16,930 nucleotides of DNA from the IMG/VR virus record IMGVR_UViG_3300000279_000019. The stretch is one strand, 5' to 3'. This document shows, piece by piece, positions 990 through 14,372 of the stretch; the stretch's first letter is position 1, and every line of letters begins with the position of its first letter. A program made the position numbers and the translations under genes. The notes beneath the pieces are model-generated. The model was not told the origin of the DNA. It made no database searches and worked only from the letters and a program-made list of their open reading frames with translations. This DNA comes from a virus (lineage: Duplodnaviria > Heunggongvirae > Uroviricota > Caudoviricetes).

Positions 990-2588
990 TTACCAATTAA
1001 AAATATAATCTTTTATTTTAAGATACATATCAACTTTCCCAGACCATTTTGATGCACTCTCTTTCATCTTTTCAATAACATCATCAATCAGTAAGTCTCT
1101 TCCTTTTACAATCAATTGATCATCATCAATACCCTCTGGTGCAAATTCATATATGTGCATGCTTAGATTAGACTTCTGAGTATGAGGGAATGAATCTTTT
1201 TCCACACACATATCAATAAACTCATTAATAGATAGTTCTTTCTGTTTACACATCATAAGTAATAATTCGAACTCATCAATTGTTATATAGTAAATTCTTT
1301 TTAGATCAATGGGGATACTATGATATTTTTCAGATAACTCAGTTGATAAATCAGGGTTAATAAAATCCTGCACAACCATTGCATTTGATATATGATGATC
1401 CCGATGCACCACAATTAACATTGAATCTTTCGAAGATGGTTTTCTCATCTCTATTTTATTTAAGTTAAAAGCACATTCCTGACCTTGATAAATCCCTTTA
1501 ATAAAACTCTTATTCAACCTTTCCTTTAGCAACTGAGCATTATTAGATGTTTTAACGAACTTTGCAGGCTCTATTGCCTTCGAGTCAATATAAACTATTG
1601 AATCTCCCTCTGAAATAACAAAATCTACGGACTTGCAATTTTTTATTGCATTATCACTATAAATCCTCTTAACCTCCCTTTCAGTCTTAAAGTTATAATT
1701 GTACTTATCAAGAAAGCGAGAAATATAAAGTTCCATCGTCTTACCAAATTTTTCTTTATAAGATTCCTTATAGACCTGCTTGAACAATTCTGGAACTAGG
1801 TTGACAAACCCTGACTTCATGATTCTTTTGCATAATATCACTACACCATCGCCATCTAAAAACATTGGTTTACTGAGGAATGGTGTATCTTCATAATACT
1901 CAGCGGTAATGTTTTTATCCAATTTATATGGGGCAATAAAATCTCTCACACCATCAATTTTTAAGCATGTTAATTCCAAAAATCTTTTCACTTGTTCCGG
2001 ACCAAATATCGGAACCAAGTTTATTATCAAGTGTTTAAATGGAATAACCTCTGATTCTATATCAGGATTAATACATGAAATAGCGGTAAAATAACATGCC
2101 ATTTTGTAATAGTTTTCCAAATGTAAACCAGTACATTCTAAAAACTTATCTTTATAATATGATTCATCATTCAAGCAATACCAAATATACTGTCTTGTTA
2201 ATGAATTGGCATTAAATTTATCAGTTGATTGATAAAGCAACTGATTTATCACCATTCGTCTAAGGCTTAGCATAACTTTATCATCAACGATTAAATTAGA
2301 TGCTTCTAGTTGCAAGTTATAGATTAAGTTGATAATATCAACAAAATCATTTTTACTCATTTCTTTTGCAGGCTTTTTTTCCTTCATGCAAAACTTCCAT
2401 TTCATTGCCAGATAGCAACACCAAGGGAAATTGGAAACAATACCCACCTCGACATCCCTTACTTTTTGGAAGTGTTCATAAAAATTTCTCAAAAAAGAAA
2501 CATCACTAAAATATGACAATCTTTTCTTAATCGCATCAACTTTTATAGAATATGACACTGGTGTCATTGTTTTTATTGCCACGCTCAT
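990..2588 (-). CDS. Hypothetical 532-aa protein, AT-rich cargo gene, no family recognised; possible PD-(D/E)xK-like motif
   Basis: Longest ORF in the window with ATG start and AAGG about 8 nt upstream; K/N/I/Y-rich composition from AT-rich DNA, in contrast to the roughly balanced backbone; segment VDFVISEGDSIVYIDSK resembles a D...(D/E)xK nuclease core; no Walker A motif seen. Confidence 0.75.
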   Translation of the reverse strand: MSVAIKTMTPVSYSIKVDAIKKRLSYFSDVSFLRNFYEHFQKVRDVEVGIVSNFPWCCYLAMKWKFCMKEKKPAKEMSKNDFVDIINLIYNLQLEASNLIVDDKVMLSLRRMVINQLLYQSTDKFNANSLTRQYIWYCLNDESYYKDKFLECTGLHLENYYKMACYFTAISCINPDIESEVIPFKHLIINLVPIFGPEQVKRFLELTCLKIDGVRDFIAPYKLDKNITAEYYEDTPFLSKPMFLDGDGVVILCKRIMKSGFVNLVPELFKQVYKESYKEKFGKTMELYISRFLDKYNYNFKTEREVKRIYSDNAIKNCKSVDFVISEGDSIVYIDSKAIEPAKFVKTSNNAQLLKERLNKSFIKGIYQGQECAFNLNKIEMRKPSSKDSMLIVVHRDHHISNAMVVQDFINPDLSTELSEKYHSIPIDLKRIYYITIDEFELLLMMCKQKELSINEFIDMCVEKDSFPHTQKSNLSMHIYEFAPEGIDDDQLIVKGRDLLIDDVIEKMKESASKWSGKVDMYLKIKDYIFNW

Positions 2589-3193
2589 AAAAAACCTTTT
2601 ATGATAAACATAGAGAAATATTTTATTTAAAAATTATCAAATACACGTTAATAAATATACATTTTTTAATTTTGCGTGCAACCCTATCCCCAATCAATAC
2701 AAAATATTGTGCACACAAAATTGAAGAAGCCTATAACTATAGGTGCCTACTGACACCTATCAAGAAACTTGTTCACCCCCGACACAATTTAATTTGGCGT
2801 AGCTCACAATGTTCTCCTCAGCACACCTACCCCCCACTTTATAGGACAGTTTTCATGCAGTACATGCATAAACAAAAGCTCATCAGTTCTGGTGGTTCCT
2901 CACCACGAACATGCAGATAATACCTCAAAACATCATGTAACAATGTTGGCATTACGCCACCAGCCACAAAAAAGCCCTACCCTTAGGCTTAATGTTTGGC
3001 TTGGCTGTTGGCTTACTATAACGCCCCGCTCACCGTCGCAGCCTGTTCGGTTTCCGCCACTGATACGGCCTCACATCATCATGCTGATAGATGTCGACGG
3101 GCTACCAGTACCATTTGCTCACCAACCCCATATTTTCCATGTTAATCTTCTCTTTCCACATGCTTTGTATGGTAATAAGCAAAAGGAAAAATG

Positions 3194-3448
3194 ATGAACA
3201 CTAAGGTGAAAGAAGCAGTAAAATGTTGGGCTTCTAGTCCAACGTGGTTTAGCAGGCATCCAATGGATACGGCGGAGTTCCGACGGGCTGTTTCAAATCT
3301 CAAGCGCATTACCCCTACCCCATCTTTCGAAGAAATCAAAGAAGCGATCATGTTCTTTGTTTCCGATGCGCCAACAATGCTAGGTACGCCGTCGGATATT
3401 CCTCAGGCGGTTCATGACTTCGCTGGAAAAATTTATAACAAGCTGTGA
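3194..3448 (+). CDS. Hypothetical small protein (84 aa)
   Basis: AAGGA at 3183-3187 with 6-nt spacer to ATG 3194 (an ATG at 3191 is also possible); TGA at 3446-3448; followed by a hairpin terminator. Only confident plus-strand gene in the left half. Confidence 0.55.
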   Translation: MNTKVKEAVKCWASSPTWFSRHPMDTAEFRRAVSNLKRITPTPSFEEIKEAIMFFVSDAPTMLGTPSDIPQAVHDFAGKIYNKL

Positions 3449-3454
3449 GCAAAA

Positions 3455-3475
3455 TGCGGGCTATCCCAGCCCGCA
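3455..3475. terminator. Bidirectional hairpin between convergent genes
   Basis: tgcgggct / atccc / agcccgca, an 8-bp GC-rich stem; A-run on the plus side gives a T-run after the hairpin for the minus-strand transcript. Confidence 0.5.
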
Positions 3476-3482
3476 TCCCTAA

Positions 3483-3665
3483 TTAACGCCGTAACTTGTT
3501 TGGCTTCGTCCATTGGTACGCCTTTTCGTTTTCCCGCCGCTGGTGGCGTTCCTGTTGCAGCACAACGGAAACAGGCGCTGAACACCTGTTAATTTTGCTT
3601 GCTGGTTGTTTGATTCCGGCAATGCTGCGGATCATCTCCAGCATATCGGCTTCGGTGATGGTCAT
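3483..3665 (-). CDS. Hypothetical small protein (60 aa), downstream partner of the 193-aa membrane protein
   Basis: ATG at 3665 preceded by AGGAAA with a 4-nt spacer (sequence taggaaacctATG); earlier in-frame ATGs at 3692 and 3686 lack an SD. Product MTITEADMLEMIRS..., basic C-terminus. Confidence 0.45.
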   Translation of the reverse strand: MTITEADMLEMIRSIAGIKQPASKINRCSAPVSVVLQQERHQRRENEKAYQWTKPNKLRR

Positions 3666-3714
3666 AGGTTTCCTATCAGCACTCATATCCAATTAATAAG
3701 TTCAATACAATGGA

Positions 3715-4296
3715 TTATCCCGTTTTAGTGACTAACCATTGCAGAATAACGATAATTAAATATGTTAATGTGCCAGTTCCAAGAAGTATTAATAATTGAT
3801 AGCAACGTAGGGCAATATTACTAATCGATTTTTGCATCACGATATTCACTGGCTCAGCCACACACTCTTTAGATCTTATCGATAGAATACTTGGAACTTC
3901 TCTATTTATTGATAATATTTCACATTGAATAGACTCACCAGGTGCAAGGCTTTCAAACTTGATAATATAGCGACCATCCTGTTCAATATTTTCTTCAAAA
4001 TGGTGGACAGGCCAAAAATTAATATGCATTGGCTTATAGTTAAAAACCAATGAGATATTAGTAGCACTTTCTCGCCCTTCATTAACAAGAATAATAGATC
4101 GTGTATACACCAACTGTGAATTAGATATTACCTCACCATTGGCATTCCGTAAGGGTTCATTGAGAAGAAAAGTAAATCCATGCTGATAACCATAGGATAA
4201 CTTTGCCTTGCTTTTAAATCTGTTATTCAGTATCCATGTTAAAATCGTTATAAAAAAAGAAAATAGTTCTTTCCCATAAAGACTAAAAAAACTCAT
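3715..4296 (-). CDS. Hypothetical membrane protein (193 aa) with N- and C-terminal hydrophobic helices, AT-rich cargo
   Basis: GAAGGA SD 6 nt before ATG 4296 (GTG at 4299 also in frame); hydrophobic stretches FSFFITILTWIL and LLILLGTGTLTYLIIVILQWLV flank a roughly 140-aa soluble domain; AT-rich like the 532-aa gene. Confidence 0.65.
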   Translation of the reverse strand: MSFFSLYGKELFSFFITILTWILNNRFKSKAKLSYGYQHGFTFLLNEPLRNANGEVISNSQLVYTRSIILVNEGRESATNISLVFNYKPMHINFWPVHHFEENIEQDGRYIIKFESLAPGESIQCEILSINREVPSILSIRSKECVAEPVNIVMQKSISNIALRCYQLLILLGTGTLTYLIIVILQWLVTKTG

Positions 4297-4430
4297 CACA
4301 CATTTCCTTCAGTAATCTGATTCTGCTGTCAAAGCTACCAGCACTATAGTCATTCATCCACATTGCGACAAGAAGGTTACAGCACGTCCAATCACACCTT
4401 AGGAAATCTTAGGGGGCTGGTTGACACTTT

Positions 4431-4687
4431 CCGGCTTAAGACCTTAATAAATCTTAATATCGCAGGTTGACACACTTGACACTTTTTCGCGAAAAACCTT
4501 AGCATTTCTAAGCATGGCAACTTGACATTTTTCGCGGTTTTTTCGGCTTTTTGACGTGGTAAATCTGGCACAAACCCAGTAATTGCGGGGCTTACAGCGA
4601 GGTTGACACTTTTTCGCGTTCAGAGTGTAAAGTGTCAACCTGGCAAGCTGTCAACCTGGCAAGCTGGCAAGCTGCTCAACTTGACAC
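4431..4687. repeat. Array of TTGACAC(TTTTTCGCG) repeats with a tandem 16-bp repeat; candidate binding-site array (packaging recognition or regulation)
   Basis: TTGACAC at 4431, 4467, 4476, 4603, 4681; TTGACATTTTTCGCG at 4522; TTGACG at 4551; inverted GTGTCAA at 4633; tandem gtcaacctggcaagct at 4634-4649 and 4650-4665 plus a partial third copy. No credible ORF spans it. Confidence 0.6.
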
Positions 4688-4696
4688 TTTTTGATG

Positions 4697-5224
4697 TCAT
4701 TGATGGTCTGATTTTTCCCACTCAGCCAGGGCGTTTAACCCGGCTTCACTCCATGATTCCGGTTCATCGGGATAATCACCTGCAACATAGCAGAGTTCGC
4801 AACGCAGCATACGAATTGCCAGCCTGGCATTACCTCGCAAATTGTATTTTTCAAAGTAATGCTGCCCTTCATCATCCTCAAGGCAGATAGCACCATCATC
4901 AAGAAAGTGCACTTCCCAGCCTAATTCCCCGGCTGCATACAGCACACGCTGCTGTATGCCCTCGTCCGTTACTGGCGCAGGAATTTTACCGTCTCTGGCC
5001 TTAACTGCTTTCCAGAACTCGCCCCATGTCATTTCCAGCGTTCTTTCTGGCCACATTTCAGAAATGGTGCCTTTCCCCTGTGCTGGTGGGCTGTTCCGCT
5101 GCTCTGTCGCTTCCACATCAATTTTTTTACCGGACATGACCACTTCGCCTTTCTCGAGCCAGTCGTAAACTGTCTGGCGGCTTACGCCTTTGTATTTGGC
5201 GTATTCGGCTTTACTCATCAACAT
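4697..5224 (-). CDS. DNA-binding protein with N-terminal lambda Nu1-like (terminase small subunit-type) winged HTH; possible packaging-redirection or regulatory protein
   Basis: GAGGTGA SD 5 nt upstream of ATG 5224; N-terminus SKAEYAKYKGVSRQTVYDWLEKGEV closely parallels Nu1 KKQLADIFGASIRTIQNWQEQGMPV; acidic C-terminal half. Confidence 0.55.
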   Translation of the reverse strand: MLMSKAEYAKYKGVSRQTVYDWLEKGEVVMSGKKIDVEATEQRNSPPAQGKGTISEMWPERTLEMTWGEFWKAVKARDGKIPAPVTDEGIQQRVLYAAGELGWEVHFLDDGAICLEDDEGQHYFEKYNLRGNARLAIRMLRCELCYVAGDYPDEPESWSEAGLNALAEWEKSDHQ

Positions 5225-5323
5225 GTAGCTCACCTCATGCATATACGATAAAAAATAATTTCATGCGGAAAGGGAATGCGTTGTGGGTATGGAGGAAAGG
5301 GGCAATAACCGCCCCTTACTGAT

Positions 5324-5596
5324 TCAGTTGCGCCAGGATGGCTGGCTAAGCGTGGTTTTCATTACATCATTGACGACCTGTTTTACGATTTCTGTGTTGG
5401 CAGTCGTGCTTTCAACATCAACAAAGCCATAATCGCCAATTTCCACCGTCAGGGATTCCAGTTTCTTCCCTAGAGCATCAGGCAACTCTCCACTGAACCG
5501 ATGCTGAAGATTTTCCACCAGCAACGCCCTGAATGCCTCGCTGTTCTCTTTTTTCTGCCATAGCTGGCGTTTATCCACTCTGATATTTAATTTCAC
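5324..5596 (-). CDS. Hypothetical protein (90 aa)
   Basis: GTG start with AGAGGTGA SD 5 nt upstream; GTGA overlap with the stop of the upstream 55-aa ORF (translational coupling). Confidence 0.5.
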   Translation of the reverse strand: MKLNIRVDKRQLWQKKENSEAFRALLVENLQHRFSGELPDALGKKLESLTVEIGDYGFVDVESTTANTEIVKQVVNDVMKTTLSQPSWRN

Positions 5597-8901: not shown

Positions 8902-10707
8902 TTATGTTCTGTCGTTAATCCCTGTAGCTGCTGGCAACCAGCCATCAGCATCATCATCTAACAGAACATTTGTTATCACTCGCCCTTTATCCGGGCCTTT
9001 AGTGCATTTAGCCCGCTTATACTCCTTTCCGTATTCCGCCATAGCTCCTGGCATATCAGTACCAAAGCGTGTCAGTGATACTGGTTTTCCCAGGCCATGC
9101 GCTGACATATAGGCTAAATAAGCATGATACAGGTATCGCCTCGGGCTAAATGGCACTATTTCCGCATTGCCCACCATCATTCCTTCACATTTAACCAACG
9201 ACATCAGATAGCCGCAAAAGTCCACCAGTGAATCACCTTCGCGCTTTATCAACAGCGCTTCTTCTGATTTTTGCTGCTCATAAAGTAGTCTTTTAGCTTC
9301 GTCCTGGTCGGTAAATCGTGTTAGCAAATGGCGAATCACTACCGCCAGTTCGCCTTCTATCTTTTCCGCCAGCATGGGATCGCGTTCGTTCTCCGGTACG
9401 ACCTCAGAGAAATTAAATATCACCCTACGACGCGAGATCCCCCCGCTTCGGTCACTGAATGACATGGCGTTATTGTTTACCGCAAGCACTACTGCCGGAA
9501 TACGTGTGGAGTAGGGGGCTTTATGTTTCGGATCAATTGCCACCTTGTCGCCGCCAGTAATTGCCTTAATTCCTGCACCATCGCCAGCGTAGCGAGTCAT
9601 ATCCGGCATGATAATCAGCGAAAAGCCAACTACTAACGCGCGTTCCCTTGCGTCTTCCAGAGCCTTCATGCTTGCCGATACTGTGTTGGCCTTACCCGCC
9701 AGCATGGTACAAATCTCAGCCATCACACTTTTACCGCTTCCGCCTGGGCCTGTTACCTCAAGGAATAACTGCCAGTCGTACCGGTTCGCCAGCACCATGA
9801 ATAATGCCGCCAGTACGCGATCAGCTTTACGATCATTATCTGCCACCGAACGACGCAGCCACTTCCAGAAATTCGGCGCATGTGTTGCCAGCGTTTCCCC
9901 CTCTGCTGGTGGGCTGAACGGTAATTCACTGGCATTTAACAACCAGTCATTTTTGTTATGCTCCCGAAAATTTCCCGTCCGGGTATCAAATACCCCGTTA
10001 CTGAATCCAATAAGATTCCTGTCTGCCCCGCCCATAACAGGCAGGCTCAATTTCATTGTGTCTACGGCAAATTTAATGGCGTTTTGCGAATAACTGATTC
10101 CAGCATCAATAAAAATCTTCGCCATAGACCGCTGGAGTTCCTTATCAGATACAGGCACCCAGACAATTCCGTTGTAATGGTGAACTACATCAGAATCATC
10201 ATTTATAGCCAGTGCTCTTCCATAATATTCAAGTAACACTTCCCCTCTCTGGCTGGCTCCCATCTGATTTAGTGCTGGCCTGGATAGGTCAATATTTTTT
10301 GTGGCTAATTTCATCGCTGAAACTTCCCCACTCTCTGCCTGTTCGCGGATCCGTTGCAGGTAGTCGCGCCAGTTTTCCGGCTCCCGGTCGGTGATACCTT
10401 TGTATAATTTCGCGTCCTGTACACCAGCCAGCGCCAGCTTTTCAGCAATAGCATTGATCTGGATTGGCTCTATCTCCCCCGCGAGATAGACACGCGCAAA
10501 GCGGCGTTCATCGTCGACAATGCGGATATTCGCCAGGTCTGCCAGTTGCTTTGGCCCCAGGTAAACAGGAGGCACGTTATCGCCGTGTTTTCGTCCTTCG
10601 CTTTCAATCCAGTGTTGAGCATGGGCGTAAGCATCCGTCCCGGCAAAAATGATTACCTCGGTGAATTTATCCTTCGGCTGATATTTTAAATTCGGTGCGT
10701 TTTTCAC
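8902..10707 (-). CDS. P4 alpha-like primase/helicase (601 aa)
   Basis: GTG start with GGAGG SD 6 nt upstream; Walker A GPGGSGKS; D5_N-like FSNGVFDTRTG motif; general architecture typical of phage/plasmid P4-family primases; iterons immediately downstream. Confidence 0.85.
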   Translation of the reverse strand: MKNAPNLKYQPKDKFTEVIIFAGTDAYAHAQHWIESEGRKHGDNVPPVYLGPKQLADLANIRIVDDERRFARVYLAGEIEPIQINAIAEKLALAGVQDAKLYKGITDREPENWRDYLQRIREQAESGEVSAMKLATKNIDLSRPALNQMGASQRGEVLLEYYGRALAINDDSDVVHHYNGIVWVPVSDKELQRSMAKIFIDAGISYSQNAIKFAVDTMKLSLPVMGGADRNLIGFSNGVFDTRTGNFREHNKNDWLLNASELPFSPPAEGETLATHAPNFWKWLRRSVADNDRKADRVLAALFMVLANRYDWQLFLEVTGPGGSGKSVMAEICTMLAGKANTVSASMKALEDARERALVVGFSLIIMPDMTRYAGDGAGIKAITGGDKVAIDPKHKAPYSTRIPAVVLAVNNNAMSFSDRSGGISRRRVIFNFSEVVPENERDPMLAEKIEGELAVVIRHLLTRFTDQDEAKRLLYEQQKSEEALLIKREGDSLVDFCGYLMSLVKCEGMMVGNAEIVPFSPRRYLYHAYLAYMSAHGLGKPVSLTRFGTDMPGAMAEYGKEYKRAKCTKGPDKGRVITNVLLDDDADGWLPAATGINDRT

Positions 10708-11783: not shown

Positions 11784-12000
11784 GGTGCACCTCCTGTACA
11801 TCAGCCATGATAATTTTTCCGGCCTTATCCAGTGCCTGATCGGCTTTCAGCTGCACAAATGCTAAATAATGGGAGATGCATTCTGATTCTCTGGCTGCGT
11901 GTTTATGCGCCACACCAGCGATAGCAGAAATCTCAATAAGTGAATCCATCAGCGTTTTGATAGCGTCTACCGCTGCATCAGGCCATGTTGCATTACACAT
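11776..12000 (-). CDS. Hypothetical protein (74 aa)
   Basis: ATG 12000 in an ATGTGTAA overlap with the upstream gene stop; coupled to the next gene by ATGCATAA. Confidence 0.5.
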   Translation of the reverse strand: MCNATWPDAAVDAIKTLMDSLIEISAIAGVAHKHAARESECISHYLAFVQLKADQALDKAGKIIMADVQEVHHA

Positions 12001-12358
12001 GCTCCACCTCCTGGCGAATACGGGCAGCGAATACCATCACGCAGCCATCAGGAGATTGCTGGCGTGCTTCCTGTTCGCTGGTGGCCTCGATGTGAATCAC
12101 GCGCGGTTGTGCCGTACTCAGGGCGATAAAACGCCAGATAAAATTGTTTTCGCATTTCTGAATAAACAACGTGTTTTCTTCGCGCCCTTTCCATGTTGCC
12201 GAGATATAGCCCATGTCATTGAGCATCTCGCAGGCATCAACCAGCGTATCGGCGGCTACATGAACAGTGTTTTTACCGTCAGCCATGCAATCACGGTGCA
12301 CCGCCAGGAAGGTGTATATAAATTTAGGGTGAGTTTGGGTATGCTGTGCCCCAGCCAT
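11993..12358 (-). CDS. Hypothetical protein (121 aa), first gene of the replication operon
   Basis: ATG 12358 with GAGGT SD about 5 nt upstream, located at the C-terminal end of a 512-aa open frame whose upstream part I consider spurious; product MAGAQHTQTHPKFIYTFLAVHRD... Confidence 0.5.
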   Translation of the reverse strand: MAGAQHTQTHPKFIYTFLAVHRDCMADGKNTVHVAADTLVDACEMLNDMGYISATWKGREENTLFIQKCENNFIWRFIALSTAQPRVIHIEATSEQEARQQSPDGCVMVFAARIRQEVEHV

Positions 12359-12447
12359 AATCGTTACCTCATTTAACGGTTTGGTTAGACGCCCCGCTAC
12401 TGCCGCAAACAGTTCGGGGCGTTGTCGTTTATATCCTCTTACTGAGG

Positions 12448-12523
12448 TGTGATTTAAATTAAATTTAACTGAATCACAGGTCAAGTATTTTTTGTGATTC
12501 TTTTTTGTGTATACTGAATCACA
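12448..12523. promoter_or_regulatory. Two dyad-symmetric operators TGTGATT-N17-AATCACA in the divergent promoter region
   Basis: TGTGATT 12448-12454 / AATCACA 12472-12478 and TGTGATT 12493-12499 / AATCACA 12517-12523, 45 bp centre to centre; TATACT -10-like hexamer at 12510-12515; sits between the divergent RHH-like gene and the replication operon. Confidence 0.55.
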
Positions 12524-12545
12524 TCTTTTGTTTAGGAGAATGCAC

Positions 12546-12851
12546 ATGGCAAAAAACACTATCAACGACAAATCAAAACAGATTTCAATTCGTATCCCAC
12601 ATGATGCTTTTGAAGGCATGGAATCCGTAAAACTGGACGGCGAAAGCAACGCCGGATTCATAGTAACCGCCATGCGTGGTGAGATCGCCCGCCGCCAGGC
12701 AGAAGGAAGCGGAGAAAATCCCCTAGTTTCTTCGCTCAATGCACTGGCGCAGGTGGAAAAAATCGGAGTCAAAGCTGTCGAGGAGATCGGGCAGCTCGTC
12801 ACCGTCGCACGTGAAGAACTCCAGCGCCGCAAGGCCAAAGAATCAGAATAA
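12546..12851 (+). CDS. Putative ribbon-helix-helix-type transcriptional regulator (101 aa), candidate master repressor of the element
   Basis: AGGAG SD 8 nt upstream of ATG 12546; N-terminal KQISIRIPHDAFEGM resembles an RHH beta-strand/helix start; only plus-strand gene here, divergent from the replication operon and adjacent to the dyad operators. Confidence 0.55.
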   Translation: MAKNTINDKSKQISIRIPHDAFEGMESVKLDGESNAGFIVTAMRGEIARRQAEGSGENPLVSSLNALAQVEKIGVKAVEEIGQLVTVAREELQRRKAKESE

Positions 12852-13523
12852 TAACTATCATCGCCGTGGTGTGAGGAACTCCGGCGCATTGCTTTACAGG
12901 TACACAGAATGACCAACAAAGAATCGACCAATACACCATCACCGGCACGGAAAAGACAGCGCAGAAAGATAGCGTACGAATATGAGTCAGACAGATTCGC
13001 GCCCTGTGCGTTTATCCTTGAGAAATTCCTTAAAGAGTACAGGCGCACAAAAATGGGGTCGCATACCTGGAAAACATCGCGGCATGGCAATGTTAAAGAG
13101 CAGGAATAGCCCACCAGCAAGCCAGCACACTGATCACATTGCCCACCAGCCGCAAATCTGGCATTGTTGGCGATGTGTTCAAGTGTGTAGCTTTCCCACT
13201 GGTGGCCCTCTGCGGTCGCCTTTGTTTTATCCAGAACGAAATTAGACATCAGATTGATCATCACCTTGCGACCTGACAAAATCGCATCAGTCGCGCCACC
13301 AGCAAAATTTTTTGCTTTCCGGACAGCGTGACCAACGACATTTTGCAGCAAAATATTCTGCATTTCTGGCGTGCTGTAGTAACGGTGATCAGCGCCTTCA
13401 CTCTGTGCGACCACAACGCTATAATCTGCCTCGTAGACAGTAAGCAATATGGCGCAGTAGGCTATTCGTTCACAAAGGCGCTCCGGCAACGGGGCGCTTT
13501 CTCTTTTTGTAACGGTCAGAGCG

Positions 13524-14372
13524 TTACACATGGCTGTTTTCCTCCATGCGACGGGCTAACCAACGCTGCGAAAGACGAATTAATTCAGCTTTCCGCTGGT
13601 GGTAGTCCAGGCCTAACTCAATCAGCGTGATATTGCTCTGCTCAAGGTAAGAAAGGTGCTCAAGCTGCAACGTGCTCATGTGGTCGCGTGGTTCGCCTGT
13701 GATGCCGTTCGCCTGCGTCCACTGTTTTGCAGTCATGCCACCCAGCACGATACGCGCCAGCATATTGGCTTCCGTGGTGTAGTGGTGCTGGAGTGTGTTT
13801 TTACCCAGTTCAGCCCGGTACGCCTCCAGCGCGGCACACATCGGCTTAAAGTAGCTGGCAACGGAGATACGGGCTTTCAGTTCCCGGCGTAACGCTGCGG
13901 AACGCACTGGCGCTACCTTGTGTAGCTCCTCCTCGCATTTGATGAAGTACTGACGAACGGCGCGGCCCTGTTCGGTGCGCTCGACCATCGCCAGTTCTTT
14001 CGCCATGTTCGTGGAGATCAAATAGTCTTCACTGCGACGATCACCGCCGCGCTTTGTTGTCCAATCAAAATCAAACTGTTCAATATTTACACTTTGGTTC
14101 CCCCGTTTCGGGGAATCAAAGTACAAATTATCTACAACTTCAAAATCCACGCCCTTTTTAAATCCGTACTCATCAATGCGTCCTTTAATCCAGGTTGTGA
14201 AATCACGCTTCACACCCAGCGCCTTATGCAACGCTCTGGCGCTAACAATATTGGTTTCACGTCCGCCAATAACGCCGGAAATAACCGGGATAATTTCGCC
14301 GAAATTTTGCAGATTCTGGTTTTCAGGCCGAACGAAGCCCTGCCCCTGTACGGGCGTTTTTCGCTGTTTCAT
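13524..14372 (-). CDS. AntA/AntB-type antirepressor-like protein (282 aa)
   Basis: ATG 14372 with AGGAG SD; segment IIPVISGVIGGRETNIVSARALHKALGVKRDFTTWIKGRIDEYGFKKGVDFEV and later MAKELAMVERTEQGRAVRQYFIKCEE match the AntA-family pattern as I recall it. Confidence 0.65.
   Translation of the reverse strand: MKQRKTPVQGQGFVRPENQNLQNFGEIIPVISGVIGGRETNIVSARALHKALGVKRDFTTWIKGRIDEYGFKKGVDFEVVDNLYFDSPKRGNQSVNIEQFDFDWTTKRGGDRRSEDYLISTNMAKELAMVERTEQGRAVRQYFIKCEEELHKVAPVRSAALRRELKARISVASYFKPMCAALEAYRAELGKNTLQHHYTTEANMLARIVLGGMTAKQWTQANGITGEPRDHMSTLQLEHLSYLEQSNITLIELGLDYHQRKAELIRLSQRWLARRMEENSHV

Follow-up and report, generated by a model that had tools for sequence, protein, structure and literature searches.

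An autonomous single-gene cassette in an Escherichia coli phage satellite encodes a membrane-anchored protein that is a candidate phage-exclusion or abortive-infection factor

The window analysed here is a 16,930-nt stretch of viral DNA (IMG/VR record IMGVR_UViG_3300000279_000019). It contains a gene for a membrane-anchored protein of 193 amino acids (aa) and, behind it on the same strand, a small gene for a 60-aa protein. The original prediction, made from the window alone, took the two genes as a module. The comparisons reported here show that the 193-aa gene forms a single-gene cassette which is autonomous, moves horizontally and is found in the accessory ends of both satellites and temperate phages, and that the two genes are unrelated units which are adjacent only through insertion. 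As for its function, the 193-aa protein is tentatively read as a one-gene phage-exclusion or abortive-infection protein that would combine a beta-sandwich sensor with membrane-compromising helices, a reading that we regard as plausible without calling it probable. The chromosome of E. coli K56-43-un is 100% identical to the window across the queried stretch 3400–4400, and its RefSeq annotation gives the same two open reading frames (ORFs), both as hypothetical proteins (WP_000007757 and WP_000156295).

The co-occurrence of the two genes was checked in 5,426 complete E. coli genomes. Of these, 15 contain the 193-aa gene, whereas the small gene is present in 129, at 168 places, and 114 of these 129 genomes carry the small gene without the 193-aa gene. 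The two genes are also adjacent in Citrobacter. By tblastn, the small protein is confined to one satellite lineage, and no homologue of it was detected near the 193-aa relatives in Hafnia, Serratia, the Yersinia phage, Pantoea and the loci L010, L011 and L013. These relatives occupy different contexts. One is the terminal gene of a different satellite, which lies at the fis locus in Hafnia, another is the last gene of a satellite adjoining yfgJ-xseA, a third lies near an integrase in one further contig, and the Serratia relative is solitary between core genes, near rpoD. In P2-like phages, the family member is proximal to the attachment (att) site and lies beyond the tail and baseplate genes, as in Yersinia phage vB_YenM_324 (L016, 27038–28809) and Pantoea pESL4.2 (L017). 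Sequence reading found a hairpin with a T-run, a terminator, right after the stop codon of the family member in L005, L007, L011, L016 and L017. At about 80 metagenome loci no recurrent neighbour was seen, and the neighbour clustering grouped duplicate contigs only. Together with the precise empty sites described next, these distributions contradict the proposed two-gene module.

The cassette that carries the 193-aa gene is present or absent as a single unit, with ends resolved to within about 6 bp (3666/3672 to 4392/4393), and it sits directly upstream of the start codon of the small gene. Empty sites were located by blastn in two related satellites: in EC11, window position 3665 is joined to 4394 via 5 bp, and in F9792, position 3671 is joined to 4394. 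SCU-104, which has the cassette, and F9792, which lacks it, share the same downstream cargo (genes for a DUF4747 protein and a 198-aa protein), and the presence of the cassette varies among otherwise collinear satellites. Its G+C content is 34%, compared with 46% for the backbone. Judging from these junctions, the cassette was inserted upstream of a pre-existing small gene, and the two genes are adjacent because of this insertion.

In the window, the two genes have the appearance of an operon. They are on the same strand, 49 nt separate the stop codon of the 193-aa gene from the start of the 60-aa gene, and the small ORF has its own Shine-Dalgarno (SD) sequence (AGGA at 3671–3674, 5 nt 5' of the ATG). 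No terminator was found between the two genes by sequence reading, consensus scan or RNA folding. The sole terminator hairpin lies 3' of the small gene; the consensus scan missed it, its T-run being short. The two genes probably share their transcript end at this hairpin (3451–3479) in this element. The proposed arrangement, a small ORF 20–50 nt downstream with its own SD and a shared terminator, is therefore correct as a description. However, this operon-like structure is explained by the insertion upstream of a pre-existing gene, because the 193-aa gene has its own terminator elsewhere. The difference in base composition that had been pointed out between the two genes was also found: the G+C content is 32.8% for the 193-aa gene and 51.4% for the small gene, with 46% in the rest of the element. 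The label "AT-rich", which had been given to the pair, fits the 193-aa gene and does not fit the small gene.

The 60-aa gene is shown to be part of the satellite backbone, as the shortened last gene of a packaging-proximal operon, and to be older than the insertion. Homologues of the small ORF, on which its original interpretation depended, do exist. Residues 3–34 match positions 1–30 of 93 in phrog_1561 (E 7.7e-6), and residues 34–60 match the C-terminal end of phrog_7271. A 96-aa relative (P0036) matches phrog_1561 over its whole length (E 5e-47), and a 94-aa version is the terminal gene of another satellite, directly behind a DUF1441 gene of the small terminase subunit type (TerS-like). In F9792 and EC11, the small gene comes straight after the packaging region. 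Compared with these relatives, about 36 residues are missing from the middle of the window copy, which correspond to two of three predicted helices, and its 3' end is replaced by a cassette junction. The three helices are those in the structure model of a long relative, which has a low predicted local distance difference test score (pLDDT 60). The ratio of nonsynonymous to synonymous variation (pN/pS) of the 60-aa gene is 0.6–0.9, from very few differences, and constraint on this gene is doubtful.

Table 1. Positions of the features discussed in the text (window coordinates).
Feature	Position	Strand	Description
GapS1 anti-phage gene	990–2588	minus	Terminal cargo slot; NCBIfam NF047931, E 6e-132
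Second, independent indel cassette	3087–3538	not assigned	Contains an 85-aa plus-strand ORF and a hairpin, and supplies the small gene with a substitute 3' end
85-aa ORF	3191–3448	plus	Weak phrog_3439 match
Hairpin followed by UUUUG	~3451–3479	minus	Likely intrinsic terminator; RNA fold -21.9 kcal/mol, z -2.9
60-aa backbone gene	3483–3665	minus	Internally shortened relative of phrog_1561 (93 aa) and phrog_7271
AT-rich accessory cassette	3672–4392	minus	~721 bp, 34% G+C; holds promoter-like site, SD and 193-aa gene
193-aa ORF	3715–4296	minus	Membrane-anchored; a 9-strand beta-sandwich lies between an N-terminal helix and a C-terminal transmembrane helix
SD (AAGGA) of the 193-aa gene	4305–4309	minus	8 nt 5' of the ATG at 4296 (sequence reading)
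Sigma-70-like promoter candidate (TTGTCG-17-TATAGT)	4343–4371	minus	In the cassette, ~47 nt 5' of the 193-aa start codon
Repeat-rich backbone spacer	4394–4696	not assigned	Separates the TerS-like gene from the insertion point; forms the left flank of the empty site

The 193-aa protein belongs to a large family that has no annotation. The family gave 591 matches at E<=1e-3, nearly all of 180–210 aa, which form about 590 clusters at 50% identity. Full-length homologues reach down to 25% identity, and the family is spread widely over soil, marine and freshwater metagenomes. The metagenome loci were collected with a degenerate DNA pattern for FNWKP..N.WP, which returned 82 loci, about 80 of them true members. 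The locus search with alignment A1 returned 2 genome loci plus near-identical IMG/VR satellites, two single-protein scans of viral sequences gave no matches, and a second word-indexed protein search with a broad family profile added almost no new members. In an alignment of 105 members, N72, P135 and G173 are invariant, the last of them in the C-terminal helix. The gene is under purifying selection (pN/pS 0.23–0.46).

The protein was described at the outset as not recognisable by sequence, and the searches agree with that: Pfam, NCBIfam, PADLOC, the annotated PHROGs and a PDB profile search were all blank. It has no Pfam family at E<=0.1 and no NCBIfam or PHROGs match, and a Pfam scan of the 105 relatives yielded a single match, which was spurious. 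The PDB was searched with the sequence profile of the 193-aa family and no match was obtained. Neither the 193-aa nor the 60-aa protein matches PADLOC-DB v2.0.0 or the NCBIfam antiphage models at E<=0.1 (libraries dated 2023 and 2026), the DefenseFinder models, including the PICI-derived "FS_" systems, being outside this search. A literature search by accession returned no paper on these proteins, and none on phage vB_YenM_324. An unannotated family of about 590 clusters deserves a Pfam entry.

The structure of the 193-aa protein was predicted by AlphaFold2 with 13 homologues as input (pLDDT 83.7). The model contains a helix at residues 2–27, a nine-strand beta-sandwich at 33–141 and a second helix at 160–192, which matches the description of a soluble domain between hydrophobic end helices in a membrane-anchored protein. 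The C-terminal helix alone attains the classical Kyte-Doolittle score of a transmembrane (TM) segment (2.16, residues 167–185), while the uncharged run of the N-terminal helix is short (L11–L23). Lysine and arginine residues are concentrated beside the beta-sandwich, with a mean of 5.0 versus 1.3 in the two tails among the 105 members, and they are more frequent on the domain side than on the tail side in 104 of the 105. Three to four of them come after the N-terminal hydrophobic stretch, and the N-terminal tail is acidic. Cysteine is not conserved in the family, and the domain has none in 36 of the 105 members. Because of this charge distribution, the acidic N-terminal tail and the unconserved cysteines, the protein is predicted to be N-out/C-out, with the beta-sandwich of about 110 residues in the cytoplasm and both terminal helices as inner-membrane tethers. 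An exported, periplasmic immunoglobulin (Ig)-like domain with a signal peptide was considered as well; it was rejected on this prediction, given the charge distribution, the acidic N-terminal tail and the lack of conserved cysteine pairs.

The cassette contains candidate signals for expression of the 193-aa gene (Table 1). Besides the ATG at 4296, an alternative in-frame GTG at 4299 would give a protein of 194 aa. The promoter candidate matches 9 of the 12 consensus positions in the consensus scan, and this is a consensus match alone. Its sequence is kept upstream of the 193-aa gene in the related satellite L004 and partly in L006.

The element in the window is identified, from its gene content and insertion site, as a satellite of the phage-inducible chromosomal island (PICI) type at tRNA-Thr/proA in E. 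coli. Its genes encode an integrase, a small AlpA-type helix-turn-helix (HTH) regulator, AntA/B, an Icd-like fragment, a DUF4222 protein, a primase, ProQ/FinO, PerC and several unknowns, and a 181-aa HTH protein has weak similarity to small terminase subunits. No phage structural genes are annotated in the island, either by RefSeq or by Pfam and PHROG scans of the late-region proteins. The att site, the flanks (a yagU-IS1-vat-MarR island) and the integrase match those of EcCIMP1, a PICI that was experimentally mobilised by phage Kapi1 (PMC11773190). EcCIMP1 differs from the window satellite in its late module and does not carry the 193-aa gene.

The original placement of the two genes in a cargo region, here at the end of a mobile element, is in accord with this annotation and with the variable slot next to them. 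Immune hot spots of PICIs have been described by the Penades group, immune genes and systems have been reported at the 5' or 3' ends of PICIs (PMC11364771), and the window satellite has variable cargo at its int-distal end. Among related satellites (L002, L003, L004, L006 and L114), the slot that follows the small gene on its downstream side exchanges its cargo. In the window this slot contains GapS1, in EC11 an Old-family nuclease and in Citrobacter bSEFIR, and in 357900 it is empty. GAPS1 has been validated as a single-protein anti-phage defence (bioRxiv 10.1101/2023.03.28.534373). The DUF4747 and 198-aa proteins, which fill the slot in F9792 and SCU-104, have no PADLOC match, and this pair is another defence candidate. 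The lineage shows two independent slots, which flank the small backbone gene. Among the published PICI immune systems that could be checked via PADLOC, NCBIfam and Pfam, the 193-aa gene is absent. The cassette behaves as accessory immune cargo does in PICIs and as morons do in temperate phages; its family lacks annotation, but the type of location is well known.

Because the neighbouring slot holds validated defence genes, phage exclusion or abortive infection is the most plausible guess for the function of the 193-aa protein. The metagenomic neighbours of the family also include type I restriction-modification genes, bSEFIR, SngA, PDC-S21/S60, integrases and transposases. In the mechanism that we favour, a promoter of its own would drive the 193-aa gene during quiescence of the satellite, and a component of the phage would be recognised by the cytoplasmic beta-sandwich at the membrane's inner face. 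The TM helices, including the invariant glycine of the second one, would then assemble, the integrity or energisation of the membrane would collapse, and the infection would be stopped. The membrane-disruption step is proposed by analogy with Cap15-type effectors. Co-transcription with the small gene would be incidental read-through, the cassette having lost its own terminator or lacking one here. A broader claim is held with less confidence: the family might represent a new and widespread type of one-gene anti-phage system in Proteobacteria and environmental metagenomes, spread as a cassette by satellites and P2-like phages, in which an Ig-like beta-sandwich between two membrane helices both senses the phage and permeabilises or de-energises the membrane. 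To our knowledge, none of the defence systems that could be checked here has been described with such a sensor-effector layout.

Several points weigh against this proposal. The case for defence is guilt by association, and the protein has no homology to defence proteins. Roughly 7–10 of the 142 metagenomic neighbour ORFs match defence models, a modest raw count given without a background. Promoter-like matches in the region of the promoter candidate are not commoner than in shuffled sequences. The topology prediction depends solely on the positive-inside rule, and the N-terminal hydrophobic stretch is short throughout the family, with a median of 13 uncharged residues in the 105 members. The N-terminal helix may thus be interfacial and not membrane-spanning.

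Signal-activated membrane effectors are among the closest known systems, for example the Cap15 effector of cyclic-oligonucleotide-based anti-phage signalling systems (CBASS), which consists of two TM helices and a small beta-barrel. CBASS effectors depend on an adjacent cyclase or other signal-generating gene. By description, not by alignment, the 193-aa protein likewise couples a small, beta-rich and predicted cytoplasmic domain to TM helices, which could disrupt the membrane when they oligomerise; however, the helices precede the domain in Cap15 and flank it in the 193-aa protein. A CBASS- or Pycsar-type effector was rejected, as the 193-aa gene has no conserved neighbour, no CBASS or Pycsar model is among the top neighbour matches and there is no PADLOC match. 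Holins were also considered. They are proteins of about 60–150 aa that consist mostly of TM helices and are encoded in the lysis cassette. In the 193-aa protein, a beta-sandwich of about 110 residues parts the helices, and the gene in vB_YenM_324 is far from the holin-endolysin-spanin cluster, so a holin was rejected. A toxin-antitoxin-like pair with the small gene is ruled out by the distribution of the two genes.

Superinfection exclusion (Sie) without cell death is a related alternative that we consider unlikely but worth keeping in view. The 193-aa protein would then block genome entry at the inner membrane, by acting on ejection proteins, the tape measure or the channel. T4 Imm, P22 SieA and HK97 gp15 block the entry of the phage genome in this way without killing the cell. 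The resemblance to single-gene Sie and abortive-infection (Abi) membrane proteins, which include SieB of lambda and P22 (PF14163) as well as these three, is in the general build: the 193-aa protein is likewise small and membrane-anchored and has no enzymatic domain. Its gene is likewise a moron near prophage or satellite ends, at the att-proximal end in P2-like phages, which are classic places of Sie genes, and it has a promoter candidate and, elsewhere, its own terminator. In addition, PICIs of the EcCIMP1 type add to superinfection immunity through genes that are unknown (PMC11773190), although EcCIMP1 itself lacks the 193-aa gene. In contrast, there is no sequence relation to the Sie families in Pfam (including SieB PF14163) or PHROGs, and the only sizeable domain is predicted to be cytoplasmic, off the periplasmic route of the entering DNA. 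We know of no Sie protein with the layout of TM helix, beta-sandwich and TM helix.

A role outside defence is likewise judged improbable, though not remotely so. The protein could serve the element's own cycle, in lysis timing, helper interference or packaging-linked membrane anchoring, or it could provide a host envelope or lysogenic-conversion trait. Such roles would suit a family that is common in soil, marine and freshwater metagenomes with many loci that have no obvious defence neighbour, and that has a Serratia copy among core genes near rpoD. The beta-sandwich is also a generic fold, and such folds often mediate protein or glycan binding. Against this, those satellites of the lineage that lack the gene are otherwise intact; it is therefore dispensable for the architecture of the satellite, and in P2-like phages the gene is outside the lysis and packaging cassettes. 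The patchy distribution, the AT-rich foreign composition and the place beside defence cargo suit a gene of conflict better.

A genuine two-gene module, in which the 193-aa effector needs the co-transcribed 60-aa protein as sensor, antitoxin or regulator, is very improbable. The adjacency, the common orientation, the short gap and the absence of an intervening terminator would all fit it, and as a point against our separation of the two genes, the small gene adjoins the 193-aa gene in 15 of the 15 E. coli genomes that have the latter, and in Citrobacter as well; an interaction specific to this lineage is still conceivable. However, the small gene is found alone in most of its E. coli genomes and at the precise empty sites, and the large gene has no small homologue beside it in at least 7 independent contexts and at about 80 metagenome loci. 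The large gene brings its own terminator elsewhere, and the small gene is a truncated, weakly constrained phrog_1561 member that trails TerS-like genes in other satellites. A spurious ORF kept by chance in AT-rich DNA, for which the lack of any family annotation could speak, can practically be dismissed, since 193 codons are very unlikely to arise by chance in DNA of 33% G+C, and since the 591 homologous clusters have conserved length and motifs, pN/pS is 0.23–0.46 and the predicted fold is confident.

Should the 193-aa protein prove to act in defence or exclusion, the catalogue would gain a minimal system that consists of one gene and has no enzyme, and a PICI lineage with two separate cargo slots around a small backbone gene could be mined for further candidates. 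SCU-104 and F9792 provide a natural test set, with matching satellite ends with and without the 193-aa gene. If the protein does not act in defence, the locus would still show how the insertion of a cassette can leave two genes of a cargo region side by side with a common terminator.

The 3' side of the small gene carries a second, independent indel cassette (Table 1). It is missing in F9792 and 357900, where sequence like that of window 3000–3086 abuts position 3539. A second copy of the small gene's final 16 codons lies at 3033–3080. No RNA family was found by Rfam in 2500–5400.

Related satellites share the spacer on the other side of the insertion point at about 90% identity, whether or not they carry the 193-aa cassette. 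This spacer contains TTGACACTTTTTCGCG at 4476 and 4603 with an 81% copy at 4681, several copies of GGTTGACAC, alternating 8-mers TGTCAACC/TGGCAAGC at 4633–4672 and an inverted repeat at 4597–4612/4629–4644. The spacer may hold packaging (cos/pac) sites or binding sites of the TerS-like protein or a regulator.

Some further observations concern the P2-like phages and the rest of the satellite. In Yersinia phage vB_YenM_324, the family member adjoins a gene for a YfbU-domain protein, and pESL4.2 is listed as a plasmid and resembles a circular P2-like phage genome. On the minus strand of the window, positions 11993–13531 form an uninterrupted 512-aa ORF with no Pfam match; at the same positions, the RefSeq annotation has no more than a C-terminal Icd-like fragment on the minus strand, and it places YlcI/YnfO-family and hypothetical genes on the opposite strand. 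The AT skew changes sign at about 12600–13200. The primase gene (8902–10707) is a 601-aa ORF from a GTG start in the window. RefSeq flags the primase in the identical genome as frameshifted (span 1,807 nt), and the Citrobacter relative is intact with 601 aa.

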